Of a DNA stretch of 64,000 bases, positions 642 to 51,969 are shown piece by piece. Within the stretch, counting starts at the first letter, position 1, and every line of letters begins with the position of its first letter. The notes beneath the pieces were generated by a model that saw nothing but the letters and a program-made list of their open reading frames with translations, ran no database searches and was not told the origin of the DNA. The translations under genes and the position numbers were made by a program. The DNA is from Candidatus Dadabacteria bacterium (GTDB taxonomy: Bacteria; Desulfobacterota_D; UBA1144; Nemesobacterales; CSP1-2), in NCBI GenBank assembly GCA_963805855.1, contig CAWDVW010000007.1:391457-455456 (forward strand). The letters run 5' to 3'.

Positions 642-3600
642 ATGGATCAGAAGCTGGAAACGGAAAAATTCAAAATTCTTCGTCAATTGCTCAGAGAGCG
701 CATCCTCATTATGGATGGCGCAATGGGGACCATGATCCAATCTTACAAACTTGACGAGGCGGATTTTAGAGGTGGAAGATTCAAGGATCATCAGAAGGAC
801 CTGAAGGGCAATAACGACATCTTATGCCTTACAAAACCGGATTTGGTCGAAAAAATACACAGTCAATACCTTGATGCCGGAGCGACAATTATTGAAACGA
901 ACTCATTTAACAGCACCGGAATCTCGCAGTCTGATTATGGGCTTGAAGATATTGTCTATGAGCTCAATAAAGAAGCGGCGAGAATTGCGAGAAAAGCCAT
1001 AGATGAATTCTCCGCGCAAAATCGGGGGCTGAACTGTTTTGTAGCCGGGGCCCTGGGGCCGACAAACAAGACGGCTTCTATGTCTCCGGATGTAAACAAT
1101 CCGGCGTACAGGAATATCACATTCGGTGAACTTTCCGATGCATATTATGAACAAATCAGGGGTCTTGTTGAGGGAGGTGTTGATATCTTACTGGCGGAGA
1201 CTGTATTCGACACGCTAAATGTAAAGGCGGTTATTTTCGCGATTGAAAGGTTCTTTGATGAGCATCATTTTAGATTGCCGGTGATGATTTCGGTGACTAT
1301 TACGGATGCGTCCGGCAGGACCCTTTCAGGACAGACCGTTGAAGCGTTTTGGAACTCAGTCAGGCATGCCAGGCCTCTTTCCGTCGGGATAAACTGTTCA
1401 TTAGGTGCTAAAGAAATGCGTCCGTATATGGATGAGTTGTCCGCTATCGTAGATTGCTACACAAGTTGCTATCCGAATGCCGGACTCCCGAATCCCTTGA
1501 GCGAAACAGGATACGATCAAAGCCCCGAAGAGACCTCCACATTCCTTGAGGAGTTTGCAAAAAGTGGGTTTGTAAATATCGTTGGAGGATGTTGTGGCAC
1601 CACACCGGATCATATTAGTGCAATAGCAACAAAAATCAGGGACATTCCTCCTCGAAAAATACCGATAATCCCTCCCGCTACCCGTCTCAGCGGGTTAGAA
1701 CCCCTGAACATAGTAGAGGATCCGGCTCCATTCGTGTTGATAGGAGAGCGGACAAACGTTACCGGATCTCCACAATTTGCTAACCTCATCAAGGCCGACA
1801 GGTTTGAAGATGCTCTCGGAGTTGCCAAACAACAGGTGGAAAACGGTGCGAATATTCTTGACGTCAACTTTGACGAGGCGTTGCTGGATAGCGGCGCCTG
1901 TATGATACGCTTCCTTAATCTGATCGCGTCCGAACCCGAAATCTCAAAGATTCCTATCATGATAGATAGCTCGAAGTGGTCGGTGATAGAGGCCGGACTT
2001 CAATGCGTACAGGGCAAATGCATAGTCAACTCGATCAGCCTAAAGGAAGGTGAGGAAAAATTTCTGGAACAAGCACGGCTCGTCATGCGTTACGGCGCGG
2101 CTACGATTGTTATGGCATTTGATGAGAAAGGACAGGCTGCCGATAAAAAGGACAAGGTACGAATTTGTCAACGCGCCTACAAGCTCTTAACTGAAAAGGC
2201 AGGGATGGATCCTACGGATATAATCTTCGATCCAAATATCCTGACTGTTGCGACGGGAATTGAAGAGCACAACAACTACGCAGTCGATTTCATCGAATCC
2301 CTCGGAGAAATAAAGGCCACATGCCCAGGGGCCCGCACCAGCGGAGGTGTCAGTAATATATCTTTCTCGTTCCGCGGTAACAATCTAGTCAGGGAGGCCA
2401 TGCACTCTGCCTTTTTGTATCATGCCATAAACGCTGGCCTTGACATGGCGATCGTGAATGCAGGAATGCTAGCAGTCTATGAGGAGATCGACAAAGAGCT
2501 TCTTGAGATGGTCGAAGACGTACTCTTGAACAGGAGAACGGATGGTACCGAGCGACTCGTTGAATACGCGGAGAAAATTAGGGGTACAGAAAAAGCAAGG
2601 CTGAAAGACGAAGAGTCGTGGCGAAAGGGAAGTGTTAAGGAACGGCTATCGCACTCACTCGTTAAAGGAATAGTAGACTTTATTGAGGAGGATACCGAAG
2701 AGGCGCGTACGAAATACGAAAAGCCACTTGACGTTATTGAAGGTCCTCTCATGGACGGTATGAAGATCGTTGGGGAACTATTCGGAGAGGGCAAAATGTT
2801 TCTGCCCCAGGTGGTCAAGAGCGCGAGGGTAATGAAGAAAGCAGTTGCATATCTAGAACCCTTCATGGAGGCCGAAAAGAGAAACGCTAATGATCCCAGA
2901 GCTAAGGGAAAGTTTGTGATCGCAACTGTGAGGGGAGACGTACACGACATCGGGAAGAACATTGTATCGGTTGTCCTGGGTTGTAATAATTACGAGGTAA
3001 TAGATCTCGGTGTGATGGTACCGTGCGATAAAATCCTTCAAACGGCCAAAGAGGTAAATGCCAATATAATTGGAATGAGCGGCTTGATAACACCGTCTCT
3101 TGATGAAATGATCCACAATGCAAAAGAGATGGAGAGGAATGGTTTCGAGGTGCCGCTACTCATAGGGGGTGCTACCACCAGTGACGCACATACAGCTATC
3201 AAGATTGCCCCAAATTATAGTGGACCTACAATACATGTTCTGGACGCATCATTGGTGGTAGGAGTATGCAGCAATCTGATGAATCCGGATAAGCGTAAAG
3301 TCCTTGAAGCAGAAACCATTGCAAAACAAAAGGCAACCAGAGAACAATATGCTGCACTATCCCATAAGAAGCATTTCATACCCATTGATGAAGCCCGTCG
3401 AGAGAAATTCAAAACCAATTGGCAAGACATTCACATAGACGTGCCTAAAAGGCTGCGAATCGAGATATCGAAGGATATACCACTCGAAGAAGTAGTACCC
3501 TATATCGACTGGACTCCGTTCTTCTGGGTATGGGATCTAAAGGGAGTCTATCCGAAGATATTCGAGCATAAAAAGTGGGGGGAGCAGGCGCGGGCTCTTT

Positions 3601-7472: not shown

Positions 7473-7698
7473 ATAATCTTATTTTAGATTTCAATATAAC
7501 AAGTTTTTATATTTATGAAAAGGCTTGTATGCGATAAATTAGTCAAGCAATCGCAAAAACAGATTGCCCCCATCACCACCCCGAGTGAAATAGTCCTGTA
7601 ATATTTTCGTTGCACCTGTTCCCGCAATTGTAGATGTTAGATACTGCGAGGATAGTCCCTTAGGTGCTAAATGGGCCTTCAAAAATGCCGACGAATTC

Positions 7699-7748
7699 GT
7701 AGGGAACGCATCCTTCGACCGAGCTCAGGACAGGTCTGCGTTCCCTAC
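7699..7748. repeat. Palindrome copy with a nested insert: GTAGGGAACGCA-[TCCTTCGACCGAGCTCAGGACAGGTC]-TGCGTTCCCTAC
   Basis: Both palindrome arms are intact. The 4-nt loop is replaced by a 26-nt module that also occurs at 13286-13307 and 51556-51578. Confidence 0.85.
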
Positions 7749-7768
7749 ATTTCGCCTCATATAATTTG

Positions 7769-7837
7769 TTGGTAACGCTCTGCTAATGTTAAAGGAGGTT
7801 GCTTCGACCGACAAAGTCAGTCTCGCAATGACATGAG
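7769..7837 (-). repeat. Element-1 repeat copy (TGTCATTGCGAGA...CGAAGCAACCTCC...CATTAGCAGAGCG), reverse orientation, adjacent to the palindrome
   Basis: The reverse complement aligns with copies at 29577-29632, 30048-30100, 30133-30200 and 32464-32530. Confidence 0.8.
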
Positions 7838-13276: not shown

Positions 13277-13334
13277 GAACACATATCCTTCGACTACGCT
13301 CAGGACAGGTATGCGTTCCCAGGTTTTGTTTTTC
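13277..13334 (+). terminator. Rho-independent terminator for pyc, built from a degenerate palindrome/insert repeat copy
   Basis: Stem GGAACACATATCC ... GGTATGCGTTCC around a loop containing TCCTTCGACTACGCTCAGGACAG. It is followed by CAGGTTTTGTTTTTC, 14 nt after the stop codon. Confidence 0.6.
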
Positions 13335-13641: not shown

Positions 13642-13669
13642 GTAGGGAACGCATATATGCGTTCCCTAC
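13642..13669. repeat. Perfect 28-bp palindrome GTAGGGAACGCATATATGCGTTCCCTAC, copy identical to 551-578
   Basis: Exact match. It lies between the convergent pyc and ICMT-methyltransferase genes and is a candidate bidirectional terminator hairpin. Confidence 0.9.
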
Positions 13670-29451: not shown

Positions 29452-29576
29452 TATTTCAGTACTACTCCACTTTTTATGGTTTTTATCAAATCAAGTATAA
29501 CTAATTATTATTTGTCGGTTAAATTCAAATGAATAACCCTTGGGTAGGTTATCAAAACATAAAAACGCCTGAACCG

Positions 29577-29632
29577 TCATTGCGAGAAACGTTGTGCTTC
29601 GAAGCAATATCCTTCGGCATTGGCAGAGCGTT
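29577..29632 (+). repeat. Element-1 repeat copy (GTCATTGCGAGAAACG..TGCTTCGAAGCA..CGAAGCAATATCC..CATTGGCAGAGCGTT)
   Basis: Member of a family of six or more copies. It contains the internal palindrome TGCTTCGAAGCA. Confidence 0.8.
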
Positions 29633-29819
29633 TGATTATCCATTCCATTATAGGATTAACCTAGCAGATTGCTTCGCCAGCCGTTCGCTGTGCTCCGGCT
29701 TAGGCTCGCAATTGTAAATGTTAGATATTTCGTGGACAAAATCCTAACAAGAATAAATTTCCTGGAAATCTGCTTATCCGTCATCCTCGAATGTTTTAAT
29801 CGGGGATCCATTGTTTAAT

Positions 29820-30038
29820 CTTTCATTTTCTTTGTCTTGATACAAAGAAACAAAAATCAAGGGCTTACAAAAAATTAGGAATTATTAAATCAATTCCTCC
29901 AGCTAAAAATATTTAATCCAACCACAACCCCAAATCTTTTTTTAACGCTGGAGGAATTGATTTTGGCAATTTTTTGAATGCCCGTTTAAGAACTAAGATA
30001 CTGTCCCCGAATTACGTAACATCTACAGCAATGACAGG
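29820..30038. repeat. Copy 1 of a ~220-310 bp mosaic intergenic repeat unit (hairpin CTTTGTCTTGATACAAAG; CAAGGGCTTACAAAAAAT; TTTTTAACGCTGGAGGAATTGATTTTGGCAATTTTTTGAATGCCCGTTTAA; ACATCTACAGCAATGACAGG)
   Basis: Same module order as 51525-51836 (219 versus 312 nt, the difference being indels between modules). It contains a 17-bp perfect inverted repeat, AAATCAATTCCTCCAGC at 29887-29903 versus GCTGGAGGAATTGATTT at 29947-29963. Confidence 0.75.
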
Positions 30039-30047
30039 AATATGGCG

Positions 30048-30100
30048 TGTCATCGGGAAAAGGAAACCACGAAGCAATCTCCTCCACCTCTGGCAGAGCA
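30048..30100 (+). repeat. Element-1 repeat copy (degenerate left arm)
   Basis: ..CGAAGCAATCTCCTCCACCTCTGGCAGAGCATT.., same orientation as copies at 29577 and 30133. Confidence 0.7.
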
Positions 30101-30132: not shown

Positions 30133-30200
30133 TGTCATTGCGAGAAATCCCGAGCCAGATCGAAGGGCACGAAGCAATCTCCTAAAACATTGGCAGAGCG
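30133..30200 (+). repeat. Element-1 repeat copy (TGTCATTGCGAGAAATC...CGAAGCAATCTCCTAAAACATTGGCAGAGCG)
   Basis: Best-conserved copy. Together with 29577 and 30048 it forms a same-orientation three-copy cluster in the 818-bp gap upstream of the fetAB 3' end. Confidence 0.8.
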
Positions 30201-32415: not shown

Positions 32416-32443
32416 GTAGGGAACGCAGATCTGCGTTCCCTAC
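32416..32443. repeat. Palindrome variant GTAGGGAACGCAGATCTGCGTTCCCTAC (loop GATC)
   Basis: The arms are identical to the copies at 551 and 13642; only the loop differs. It is followed by ACATTT...TTGGTAAC and an Element-1 copy, the same arrangement as at 7699-7837. Confidence 0.9.
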
Positions 32444-32463
32444 ATTTTTTTACATATAGTTTA

Positions 32464-32530
32464 TTGGTAACACTCTGCCTAGCGTGGAGTAGATTGCTTC
32501 GGAAAAAGCGTTTCTCGCAATGACAGTAAA
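32464..32530 (-). repeat. Element-1 repeat copy (reverse orientation), followed by a partial second copy at 32553-32595
   Basis: The reverse complement is CTGTCATTGCGAGAAACGC...CGAAGCAATCTACTCC...GGCAGAGTGTTACCAA. The partial copy is CAATGCTCTGCTAATGTTGAAGGAGAATGCTTC. Confidence 0.8.
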
Positions 32531-32757
32531 AAATATTCAATGGTAGCGGGTGGGCAATGCTCTGCTAATGTTGAAGGAGAATGCTTCAGGACTTTCTCAG
32601 TCCCTCCCAGCGCCGGGAAATTAAGAATTGACACAGTTGCATCTCCGATAGGTATGCGTTACGCTAAATGGATCGATAATGATTTTATGAAATAAGCTAT
32701 ACTCCTTCCGAGTAAAAATATATGATTTAAGAATTTAATTATAATTCATAAAACAAG

Positions 32758-46732: not shown

Positions 46733-46907
46733 AATTAATTTAATTCAAGGGATTTATTTTAATCAAATAATGCGATGTCGCAATGATTCAGATGACCAGG
46801 GGGAACACATGAACTATGGTTTAATATAGCTTCAATATTCTGCTTGACATCCCAACTCACATGGTCTTAAAATAGAAAAGCTGAAAAATTCTATCGGAAG
46901 GAATAGG

Positions 46908-47243
46908 ATGGATATTCTCATTTCAATGAAGGCAGAAACGATTCAGAAAGGACTATATATGAATTGCAACATAATGCAGATGCCAACCGCTCAAGCAAAA
47001 CCCTACTTTATTATGGAGCTCCGAGAAGATAATGAGGTTAAGCTTAAACTTATCAAACAATATGCTCAAATTCTTCAAGAAAAATTTGATGAAGATGAGG
47101 AGTTTTTGATCGAGCACACAAATATCGGGATCATACTTAAGAAAAGGGTTGATGAAGGCGTGGAATACATGGAAGCGTGGGATAATTGGGTTCTGTTTTC
47201 GAGGAAAGTTTATGAAGAACTGGCGGAAATAGTGGGAGAATAA
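46908..47243 (+). CDS. Hypothetical protein (111 aa)
   Basis: Open frame between convergent and divergent neighbours. No recognisable motif and only a weak SD. Confidence 0.35.
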   Translation: MDILISMKAETIQKGLYMNCNIMQMPTAQAKPYFIMELREDNEVKLKLIKQYAQILQEKFDEDEEFLIEHTNIGIILKKRVDEGVEYMEAWDNWVLFSRKVYEELAEIVGE

Positions 47244-47398
47244 TTAACTAAAGTTATCCATTTTATTTCACAAGTATAACGTATATCTCAACTTGCATTT
47301 CCATCTATCTTGGCTAATATTCTTTTCACTTTATAAAGAATCCGCTAACCAACCATTGATATTTTGGCCAATCAGAAAAGCCGGAGAAAAATCACCAT

Positions 47399-50289: not shown

Positions 50290-51360
50290 CTATTCCAAAC
50301 CTGGCCAGCTCATGATAGGGTCAGTCGAGCTCACAACATGCATCCCGGCGCTCTCAAATCTTTCAAACGCCATATCAGCCTCCTCCGTATAGTCTATAAT
50401 TCCCGGAATCACAACAGGCGATGTGCAATCTTCCAATAGATAGATCTTTTCTACCAGGCTTTTATCGACTTTCATTACTCCATCCAGCAAATCAGATATT
50501 GTCCATGCAACACAATGACTCTTTGCCTGACCGGCTATTACAATTGCGTCAAAGGCCCTAAATTCGTGAAGTATTTCCTCTGACTGGGTACTTTTCTGAA
50601 ATAGGGACTGTGTTCTTAATCCAATGGGTTCACCTTCGGGACCTGATTTCACTTCCGGGGCTAAAACCGAGTAATGCTCAGTAAAAGGATTATCCCCCTT
50701 AACATGAATATGAGGCTGGCTGTACCTTGCGACTGTATGGAAAAAGATTGCCTCCTCAACAGATGAGACTAAGGCGTGACCGATACCGCCCAACATCGCA
50801 TGATAGGGCCAGACTGTGAGTTCATATTTCCCCGTTTTTTTCAGTTCCTCAGTGTAATGAAGTAAATGACTATTAACATACTGTGGACTTCGTTTTATGT
50901 TATGGCTCAGCAACTCATTGAATCGCCAGCGACCCTCCCTGATATCGTCATGTGAGATCAAGGTAAAAGGGGAGGGGTGCTCTCCATTTTCATCTACAAG
51001 AAATATGCTATGGAAAATCTGCATTGCCTGGTGTGTGTCCATCGTCGGCATGATCTGGGTAATTAGATTCAGATTCCGGTATATGAAATCGCATAATTTT
51101 TGATTGTCATGTACCGCGCCTTTTCCAGACCTTCCACCAACAAAAAGCTCAAATTCCGGAATGCAAAAGGTATTCTGAGCGTCGACAATCACGAGGCAAA
51201 GCTTGAAGCTGTCATTACTCGAGGGCTCGATATTATGCTTGTTAGACCAGTCGCTTGCGGCTTTGGCAATTTTTTGATAATCCACCCTCCATACCCTCGA
51301 TACCATGTCTGGATCGAAATGGGGAGGAAGCGGAAGCTCATTTTGGTTCGGCTTAACCAT
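50290..51360 (-). CDS. Cysteine-hydrolase (isochorismatase/nicotinamidase) family protein with a long N-terminal extension
   Basis: LVIVDAQNTFC (Asp motif) and a catalytic Cys in GQAKSHCVAWT. 356 aa, versus about 200 aa for typical family members. Confidence 0.65.
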   Translation of the reverse strand: MVKPNQNELPLPPHFDPDMVSRVWRVDYQKIAKAASDWSNKHNIEPSSNDSFKLCLVIVDAQNTFCIPEFELFVGGRSGKGAVHDNQKLCDFIYRNLNLITQIMPTMDTHQAMQIFHSIFLVDENGEHPSPFTLISHDDIREGRWRFNELLSHNIKRSPQYVNSHLLHYTEELKKTGKYELTVWPYHAMLGGIGHALVSSVEEAIFFHTVARYSQPHIHVKGDNPFTEHYSVLAPEVKSGPEGEPIGLRTQSLFQKSTQSEEILHEFRAFDAIVIAGQAKSHCVAWTISDLLDGVMKVDKSLVEKIYLLEDCTSPVVIPGIIDYTEEADMAFERFESAGMHVVSSTDPIMSWPGLE

Positions 51361-51524
51361 AGAATTGATATTTTACATATCGCCTGTAGAAACGTAAATA
51401 TCATTTCTCGGTGGCGAGGGAGAATATTAGGTTTAATATGAGTGGTGATATCACCGTAGACGTTAGATCTTTGGGGGGCTAGAATCTATAGGTATTTATT
51501 TCAAATTAACCATAACTTTTACAA

Positions 51525-51836
51525 TATTTACTTTGTCTTGATGCAAAGTAACAACCCTTCGACTGTGCTCAGGACAAGGGCTAACAAAAAATGCTTGCGT
51601 ATCGAGCGAATGCGAGATATCAATTGCTAAAATATTTAATTAGTTCTCTCAGTCACTTTGTTCCTTCGAGAGATGACAGTAATGATCGTCACTTTTTTTA
51701 ACGCTTCCGGAATTGATTTTGGTAATTTTTTGAATGCCCATTTAAACCAATTCAATTGGGCGAAGGTTCAGGAAATAGTGCGTTAAAAATTAAGATGTTA
51801 TCCACAAATAATGTGACATCTCCAGCAATGACTGCG
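51525..51836. repeat. Copy 2 of the ~220-310 bp mosaic intergenic repeat unit (CTTTGTCTTGATGCAAAG; CAAGGGCTAACAAAAAAT; TTTTTAACGCTTCCGGAATTGATTTTGGTAATTTTTTGAATGCCCATTTAA; ACATCTCCAGCAATGACTGCGG)
   Basis: Module order and sequence match 29820-30038. It additionally carries the TCCTTCGACTGTGCTCAGGACAAGG module seen inside the palindrome at 7711-7736. Confidence 0.75.
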
Positions 51837-51969
51837 GGGTCGGACGTGATTGACAGCGGGGACACTATAGCAATTTAGAGGGAATTGACTAGTTAAATAA
51901 ATCTTGTACAAACACCGTTTCGATAACATCACGGTTTGTAATCTCTGAAAATCCGCTTCAGGTTATCAT

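Follow-up and report, generated by a model that had tools for sequence, protein, structure and literature searches.

A modular, MITE-like repeat family of uncultured Thermodesulfobacteriota with a preferred target inside a second dispersed repeat

[quoted passage not shown] Among the described families, Chunjie (Geobacter uraniireducens, Desulfobacterota-type), Correia (Neisseria), and Nezha (cyanobacteria) come closest to the repeat considered here. This repeat is present as two copies and one fragment in a 64-kb stretch of DNA from a Candidatus Dadabacteria bacterium (contig CAWDVW010000007.1, positions 391,457 to 455,456), which we call the window and whose own numbering we use for all coordinates. 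Copy A is a complete MITE-like element of 315 bp on the + strand at 29713-30027, recognized by its match to a family profile, and copy B is an older and decayed element whose profile-matching part lies at 51525-51832, also on the + strand. Both very probably belong to a modular and so far unnamed MITE family that is present in high copy number in uncultured Thermodesulfobacteriota, is non-coding and non-autonomous, and is served by a transposase encoded elsewhere. The anatomy of the element, its copy number, its target duplication, its presence or absence at orthologous sites, and its lack of coding capacity are all direct observations.

The features found are those of a MITE: a length of less than 500 bp, no coding sequence, terminal inverted repeats (TIRs), flanking direct repeats, many dispersed copies, and mobility. 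Known MITEs are likewise shorter than 500 bp, non-coding, AT-rich, and intergenic, with TIRs and with direct repeats at their younger copies (PMC10969869), and they too occur in tens to hundreds of copies, many of which are truncated and have lost ends and direct repeats, and fold into a long hairpin (PMC10969869). The size, ends, direct repeats, AT-rich intergenic sites, and truncated copies of the present family therefore fit the published definition of a prokaryotic MITE (PMC10969869). We noticed no resemblance to the named MITEs, against which no sequence comparison was run, and the family differs from them in its strong preference for one 5-bp site within another repeat family and in its swappable middle modules, which surround a constant 50-nt core conserved like the ends. 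In being a mosaic of modules that may be present, absent, or swapped, it resembles the pneumococcal BOX, RUP, and SPRITE repeats and the bacterial interspersed mosaic elements (BIMEs) of E. coli, families that also cluster and insert into one another (PMC10969869) and also lie mostly between tandem and convergent genes (PMC3733652). BOX and BIME elements, however, both lack the long TGT...ACA TIRs and the 5-bp duplication seen here, and we noticed no sequence similarity to them.

Copy A occupies the spacer between two minus-strand genes, one for an M20 peptidase and one for a UPF0014 membrane protein. The family profile, which was built for nhmmer from 22 full-length members in other genomes, matches it at 29705-30036 (E = 1e-101, profile positions 3-333). 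The 26-nt TIRs (TGTAAATGT...ACATCTACA) are complementary at 21 of 26 positions; the left one (TGTAAATGTTAGATATTTCGTGGACA, 29713-29738, +) has five mismatches to the family end consensus TGTAGATGTTACGTAATTCGGGGACA, and the right one (TGTCCCCGAATTACGTAACATCTACA, 30002-30027, +) has none. Immediately outside them stands a duplicated target site, GCAAT, at 29708-29712 on the left (+; junction ctcGCAAT/TGTAAATG) and at 30028-30032 on the right (+; junction ACATCTACA/GCAATgac), so that the flanking direct repeats for which a preliminary description of this DNA had suggested a search do exist. The whole element can be folded into a single long hairpin, closed by the pairing of its ends, at -82.5 kcal/mol and z = -5.5 relative to shuffled sequence. 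Inside it lie a small hairpin, CTTTGTCTTGATACAAAG (29830-29847, +), which is a conserved island of the family; the left arm of an inner inverted repeat, AAATCAATTCCTCCAGC (29887-29903, +), which is a perfect 17-bp complement of 29947-29963; and the 54-nt conserved core, CTTTTTTTAACGCTGGAGGAATTGATTTTGGCAATTTTTTGAATGCCCGTTTAA (29936-29989, +), which is 91% identical to the core of copy B. The non-coding context described earlier is borne out: copy A has no internal open reading frame (ORF) that reaches 20 aa, ORFs that overlap the copies measure at most 51 aa (the longest one overlaps copy A), and the two copies do not share their small ORFs. As an insertion, copy A is young, almost intact, and specific to its lineage.

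The inner repeat of copy A has a peculiarity of its own. A 4-nt change in the core, from TTCC to GGAG, creates the perfect 17-bp pairing between 29887-29903 and 29947-29963, compared with 11 bp that pair in most other copies, and the outcome looks like hairpin-templated correction.

In the preliminary description the two regions had been presented as a mosaic unit of about 220 to 310 bp, extending from 29820 to 30038 and from 51525 to 51836 and composed of five shared blocks. In a pairwise alignment, all five blocks are found in both regions; they lie on the + strand, keep their order, and are separated by indels. The match is not due to chance: two occurrences, no more and no fewer, of the 31-nt core pattern GGAATTGATTTTGGYAATTTTTTGAATGCCC were counted in the window, compared with 0.00 expected from 100 shuffles. 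The blocks are specific to one repeat family and are not common low-complexity motifs. A repeat finder returns as the best shared block 29936-29989 versus 51692-51745 (54 nt, 91% identity) and as the second 29825-29853 versus 51526-51554 (29 nt, 90% identity), and the 50-nt block that had been singled out as the best conserved is, as the core, the most conserved part of the family together with the small hairpin. The boundaries have to be redrawn, although the shared region itself stands. Copy A begins at 29713 and not at 29820; the final block is part of the element except for its last 8 nt (GCAATGAC), which are the duplicated target and flanking host repeat; and the extent given for copy B agrees with the profile match at 51525-51832 but misses a decayed left end further out, at about 51455-51486. 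The proposal of a decayed non-autonomous mobile element was right as to kind, and decay describes copy B, but copy A with its TIRs and target duplication is nearly intact. The impression of a mosaic with indels arose because the family is modular between its ends, and family copies without a left end, which begin shortly ahead of the hairpin, correspond to the unit of about 220 bp.

The family is far more widespread than the window, and some uncultured bacteria of the sulfate-reducer type carry it dozens of times. In a set of one genome per prokaryotic species, exact matches to a 24-nt stretch of the core used as seed (TTGATTTTGGNAATTTTTTGAATG) number at least 85 loci; among the matches listed, the single-cell genome Desulfobacterota bacterium AH_259_B03_O07 accounts for about 68, the Thermodesulfobacteriota metagenome-assembled genome (MAG) MFD09513 for 12, and MAG SCS3bin.13 for 3. 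Two listed matches, in an Omnitrophota MAG and a Gammaproteobacteria MAG, have unrelated flanks and were dismissed as chance. Very many of the listed matches lie no more than about 150 nt from a contig end, which fits a repeat that breaks short-read assemblies, and the family accounts for assembly fragmentation in uncultured Thermodesulfobacteriota, where many contigs end inside it. In metagenomes, the seed is present on 42 contigs, and 41 of these match the family profile by nhmmer, with L102 as the exception (L numbers denote individual loci). Viral contigs gave no match to the seed, and plasmids gave none to copy A.

The 35 non-redundant complete copies measure 271-397 bp, are non-coding, and, like the family in general, reside in AT-rich intergenic DNA. 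Aligned on the seed, the copies have the left end TGTAGATGTYACGTAATTCGRGGACAG and the right end CTGTCCCCGAAWTAYSTAACATCTACA, which is the inverse of the left; the end pair of the element is TGTAGATGT...ACATCTACA, with termini that begin TGT and finish ACA. From left to right, a member consists of a TIR of about 26 nt, a left arm of variable length that comes in two kinds, the hairpin CTTTGTCTTGATACAAAG, whose loop sometimes holds inserts of 23-30 nt, an exchangeable middle module, a constant core that starts with CTTTTTTTAACGCT and measures about 50 nt, an optional hairpin module, and the right end. The middle module has three alternatives, of which copy A carries the common one and copy B the one we call B-type. 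Subfamilies have exchanged the sequence upstream of the core, whereas the core itself remains constant; conservation over the whole set of family hits is highest in the core (profile positions 231-280) and in the hairpin (121-150). Because the loci had been chosen by an exact match to the core seed, conservation was recounted on 46 bystander copies without the exact seed, giving 82% for the left end, 81% for the right end, 84% for the hairpin (which reaches 94% identity in seed-bearing copies), 78-82% for the core, and 53-69% for the remainder. The core is about as constrained as the ends. It is conserved among genomes with only about 70-76% protein identity, and orthologous proteins of the single-cell genome AH_259_B03_O07 are about 67-76% identical to those of the window.

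The 5-bp flanks agree with at most one mismatch in 15 of the 35 non-redundant complete copies, and in several of the 14 complete copies classed as other they differ merely by an indel of 1-3 nt. Rare variants carry particular weight: ATTTC stands on both sides of the copies in L050 and L110, and also of that in L006 if a 3-nt offset at the left end is allowed, and AGTGC stands on both sides in L056. Since such rare pentanucleotides cannot be explained by constant element sequence, the duplication is real. The usual target is ATTGC within a second repeat, GTCATTGCGAG...CGAAGCAATC, and the GCAAT duplicated at copy A is inside GTCATTGCGAG as read on the other strand. This host repeat is itself dispersed and has the form GTCATTGCGAG-N15-35-CGAAGCAATCTCC-N8-TTGGCAGAGCG. 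Its leading 11-mer has seven matches in the window with at most one mismatch, compared with 0.9 expected, four of them exact (29576, 30134, and, on the minus strand, 7822 and 32514), and occurrences of the repeat cover 29576-29630, 30049-30100 (partial), 30134-30200, 7780-7832 (minus), 32463-32524 (minus), and 32550-32587. Copy A splits a minus-strand host repeat resembling REPs (repetitive extragenic palindromic sequences); the larger part lies at 29663-29712 and the remainder at 30028-30038, and when rejoined they read, on the minus strand, CCTGTCATTGC/GAGCCTAAGCC...CGAAGCAATCTGCT. The start of the host repeat is often (C/T)GTC and resembles the CGTC-tagged REPs of the literature. A literature search returned nothing relevant to GTCATTGCGAG and no named family, only general reviews of MITEs and REPs.

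Comparison with related genomes shows the element coming and going. The window is syntenic with contig JBAUII010000146.1 of MFD09513 (locus L059) at about 89-91% nucleotide identity, from which it follows that the source of the window is a close relative of that MAG. In L059, a 365-bp family member in the opposite orientation follows GTCATTGC of a REP-like repeat that is intact in the window (GTCATTGCGAG...CGAAGCAATCTCC...TTGGCAGAGCG, 30134-30200, +), where it constitutes the empty site for the relative's insertion. Alignment of the orthologous spacers shows, in turn, that L059 has neither copy A nor the reverse-oriented repeat that hosts it. Copy A and the L059 member were inserted independently after the divergence of the two species, and the empty site for either insertion is seen in the other genome. 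Presence and absence at orthologous sites of related genomes indicate that the element has been mobile recently.

Copy B, which lies between two minus-strand genes for an isochorismatase-like protein and a DsbA-like thioredoxin-fold protein, gives a view within a species. Relatives of its site were gathered by way of the isochorismatase-like protein and then through their contigs, and among them the spacer ranges from 58 to 609 nt and in most cases lacks the core. A full B-type copy is present in the window (609 nt) and in the metagenome contig L090 (591 nt), where the ortholog of copy B has the same place and orientation and aligns with indels of 1 and 2 nt, which fits non-coding DNA. The spacer of L128 (506 nt) retains remnants of both ends around a different interior, and that of L140 measures 408 nt. 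Those of L131 and L136 (298 nt each) and of L138 (170 nt) have only a remnant of the left end, so that traces of this end persist at the orthologous site in four relatives, and those of L139 and L141 (about 210 nt) and L133 (58 nt) have no trace of the element. The element is a presence/absence polymorphism within a species, and its core is dispensable at the copy B locus.

As a whole, copy B spans about 51455-51824, and its profile-matching part has an nhmmer E value of 1e-31. The decayed left end (CGTAGACGTTAGATCTTTGGGGGGCTAGAATC, 51455-51486, +) lies in a stretch, 51454-51548, that matches the profile weakly, and by our count it agrees with the left-end consensus of window-type copies at about 24 of 32 positions. 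The decayed right end is TATCCACAAATAATGTGACATCTCCA (51799-51824, +). The 54-nt core is at 51692-51745 (+), and a 22-nt insert (CCCTTCGACTGTGCTCAGGACA, 51555-51576, +) is missing from copy A. The folding of copy B is no better than that of shuffled sequence (z = -1.5). With its different middle module, it represents the B-type subfamily that is also found in L048, L062, L070, and L123. Copy B is the older of the two insertions, with decayed ends and an acquired short insert.

How would such an element move? Termini of the form TGT...ACA combined with a 5-bp duplication are the pattern of the integrase-type DDE group of transposases, to which IS3/IS481, Mu, Tn7, and Tn402-like elements belong. 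The family has exactly these termini and a duplication of this length, as do IS3/IS481, Mu, Tn7-like elements, and the Tn402/Tn5053 'res hunters', and because of these two features the transposase may well be a DDE enzyme of the retroviral-integrase type, which would place the family among the integrase-type DDE transposons. In the scheme that we favor, the element would be moved in trans by a transposase encoded elsewhere in the genome, insertion would duplicate 5 bp, and the preference for ATTGC in GTCATTGCGAG would lead to nesting inside the second, shorter repeat. The ends, the hairpin, and the core would be the cis-acting sites needed for transposition, and for the core this appears to be the most economical reading. 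The likeness to integrase-type DDE transposons has its limits, since no transposase or targeting gene was found beside any copy, and since extra end-like motifs are confined to two weak ones (4 mismatches) in the sub-terminal regions, outside the core.

Several observations weigh against a MITE family moved in this way. Six of the 35 complete copies have inverted flanks (GTCATYGC/.../GCAATGAC), which a single cut-and-paste insertion does not predict; the simplest idea is that they arose by recombination between oppositely oriented copies. No autonomous partner with the same ends was found in the 142 fetched loci, in plasmids, or in viral contigs, and no multi-copy ORF occurs among the 308 ORFs of the fetched loci (about 0.7 Mb). 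Conservation of the core equals or exceeds that of the ends, and yet the core has no detectable repeat of the end motif, so that its role in transposition is an assumption; for the same reason we abandoned the idea that it is an additional end-like binding site for the transposase. Finally, the left end is missing from several copies, whose sequence begins shortly before the hairpin, and this boundary recurs. They may be the product of plain truncation, and truncated copies are common in MITE families (PMC10969869).

Some details belong beside these points. The copies with inverted flanks are those of L025, L026, L058, L071, L096, and L119, and in some of them the inverted repeat is longer by 11 to about 40 nt, reaching into another repeat (CCCTGTAGCTTGCTACAGGG...CCTGTCATTGC). 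The copies without a left end (L093 at 2900-3118, L097, L105, L098, L108, L092/L117, and L116) begin 10-25 nt before the hairpin, and in L093, L097, and L105 the boundary is about 35-50 nt upstream of the apparent start, in our own translation, of a glutathione-S-transferase-like gene on the opposite strand. Truncated copies adjoin ordinary host genes, and in the fetched loci no left end and right end are paired at a distance of more than 600 bp. Of the transposase-related genes encountered, an rve-type gene in L098, the only rve-domain gene seen, was rejected as the parent after its own ends had been read and proved unlike those of the element, and the IS1182/IS5-like gene of L106 and the IS1595-like gene of L120 were identified by Pfam only and were not linked to the element.

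The target specificity of Tn7-like and Tn402-like elements is analogous to the preference for GTCATTGCGAG described above, and a stronger version of the same mechanism can be framed around it. If the family were the non-autonomous form of a site-specific 'repeat-hunting' transposon that recognizes GTCATTGCGAG...CGAAGCAATC, then the core might be a distinct functional module, either a second site for protein binding or a regulatory element that acts outward and is carried around the genome by the transposon, and not just a slowly decaying remnant of the parent. We regard this version as unlikely.

Less probable again is that these are mosaic repeats of the REP/BIME kind, spread by a tyrosine transposase (HUH, RAYT, or IS200/IS605-type) acting on single-stranded hairpins. 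The ends of the element do hold GTAG (in T-GTAG-ATGT), a tag typical of REPs (PMC3733652), and GTAG-tagged palindromes, GTAGGGAACGCA...TGCGTTCCCTAC, occur in the same genome. The modular, mosaic structure rich in small hairpins and the placement between tandem or convergent genes are also those of REPs, and copies with inverted flanks or a single end are awkward for the DDE model. HUH and RAYT-type elements, however, make no target duplication, whereas here even ATTTC and AGTGC match on both sides, and units of 271-397 bp with a 5-bp duplication and TIRs of about 26 nt are not palindromes of 20-40 bp. What follows GTAG, moreover, is no conserved palindrome but TTACGTAA or TTAGATAT depending on the copy. 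We noticed no RAYT gene among the ORFs of the fetched loci, although no search was aimed at this family. As for the tagged palindromes themselves, which are of the classical kind, they lie in the window at 551-578, 13642-13669, 32416-32443, and 7700-7749.

The preliminary description had offered a duplicated non-coding RNA gene as the other explanation, and in a fuller form of this idea both regions would be paralogous non-coding RNA genes or cis-regulatory RNAs with a functional core and a variable scaffold around it. The core is indeed the best-conserved part across copies and across distant genomes, its hairpin GGCA-N10-TGCC keeps its pairing in copy B despite a C-to-T change that turns a G-C pair into G-U, and both window copies are upstream of minus-strand genes. 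We nevertheless find this reading very improbable. The Rfam scan that had been proposed gave no match at the gathering score anywhere in the window, and when E values up to 10 were allowed for the two spacers it gave only sub-threshold matches to eukaryotic microRNAs or snoRNAs, attributable to the inverted repeats; tRNA and tmRNA genes are absent from the window. Promoter and terminator signals are at the level of shuffled sequence, with three promoter-like sites in the copy A spacer compared with 2.5 expected, none of them in the core, and no terminator. Core-bearing copies, classified by the orientation of the element relative to neighboring genes, number 22 and 19 in the two tandem contexts, 18 between convergent genes, 2 between divergent genes, and 0 inside long ORFs. 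The absence of an orientation bias argues against a directional function as promoter, leader, or terminator, and the scarcity of copies in divergent promoter regions is as expected for tolerated selfish insertions; REPs are known to be distributed in the same way, mostly between tandem and convergent genes (PMC3733652). Against an RNA gene speak, in addition, the dozens of copies per genome with TIRs and target duplications, the absence of the element from orthologous sites of close relatives, and the absence of the core from the orthologous spacers of L128, L131, L136, L138, L139, and L141. Two promoter types were also considered for the core by eye and discarded: a sigma-54 promoter, for which the spacing is one base short, and a sigma-70 promoter, for which TTGGCA-18-TAAAAT is found in one subfamily only and in neither window copy.

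For copy B, the conservation relative to L090 at first looked like strong evidence of purifying selection, as would be expected if it had been domesticated as the regulatory spacer of the DsbA-like and isochorismatase-like genes. The spacer is 89% identical (542/609) and the core 52/54, compared with 50-62% identity (about 58%) at fourfold-degenerate sites of the neighboring genes and 61-81% in the other syntenic spacers of the block. Synonymous-codon identity in the adjacent gene, however, falls stepwise with distance from the spacer, through 87%, 80%, and 72% to 57%, and is flat at about 68% in the gene on the other side. L139 and L141, furthermore, share 99.4-99.6% identity with L090 in the 3' 800 nt of the isochorismatase-like gene but only 96.7% in its first 270 nt, and their spacer of about 210 nt is unrelated to that of L090 and the element is wholly missing. 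This gradient, together with near-identical strains that have different spacers, points to a recombination tract with a younger common ancestor, which covers about 51000-51969, that is, the DsbA-isochorismatase spacer and the first ~270 nt of the isochorismatase-like gene. With the recombination tract accounting for the conservation, and with a spacer that varies from 58 to 609 nt among relatives and has mostly lost the core, purifying selection was rejected and domestication of copy B is hardly credible. A duplicated gene neighborhood was likewise rejected as the cause of the similarity, the proteins that flank copies A and B being unrelated.

Read as a MITE family, the repeat is ordinary selfish DNA and not a new kind of system, and its biological interest is modest but real. 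It is mildly unusual in using a preferred pentanucleotide of another repeat, in having interchangeable modules, and in possessing a 50-nt core conserved like the ends. Insertion into another dispersed repeat lets the family multiply without hitting genes. The family is a ready marker for strain-level presence/absence polymorphism, and annotators should be wary of calling its hairpin-rich spacers RNA genes. Finding what binds the core and which transposase moves the element would make a small, tractable problem in bacterial transposon biology.

The third family member in the window is partial, comprising the right end and part of the core (caatTGTAGATGTTAGATACTGCGAGGATAG...) at 7623-7689 on the minus strand (nhmmer E = 5e-10, profile positions 262-330). 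In the spacer upstream of the IleRS gene (46733-47398), the window differs from L090 by about 2 kb, and the extra DNA of L090 there appears to contain an ORF of 331 aa.

Short inserts of 22-30 nt and of the form CCCTTCGACnnnGCTCAGGAYAGG have fixed positions within MITE copies, one of them being the loop of the hairpin CTTTGTCTTGATAC^AAAG. They were seen in copy B (51555-51576) and in the loci L039, L056, L016, L004, L040, and L060, and related forms are ATACTTCGATAAACTCAGCATGAAACGGGT and TGAAACGAGTTCAGCACAGGTAC. The kind of insert carried by copy B is found in some other family copies and also at 7710-7745 and 13285-13320 of the window; in the first of these places, a short insert of about 25 nt (ATCCTTCGACCGAGCTCAGGACAGGTC) sits in the loop of the GTAG-tagged palindrome at 7700-7749, and the second has the same insert type. 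The inserts appear to form yet another nested repeat family, a very small one.

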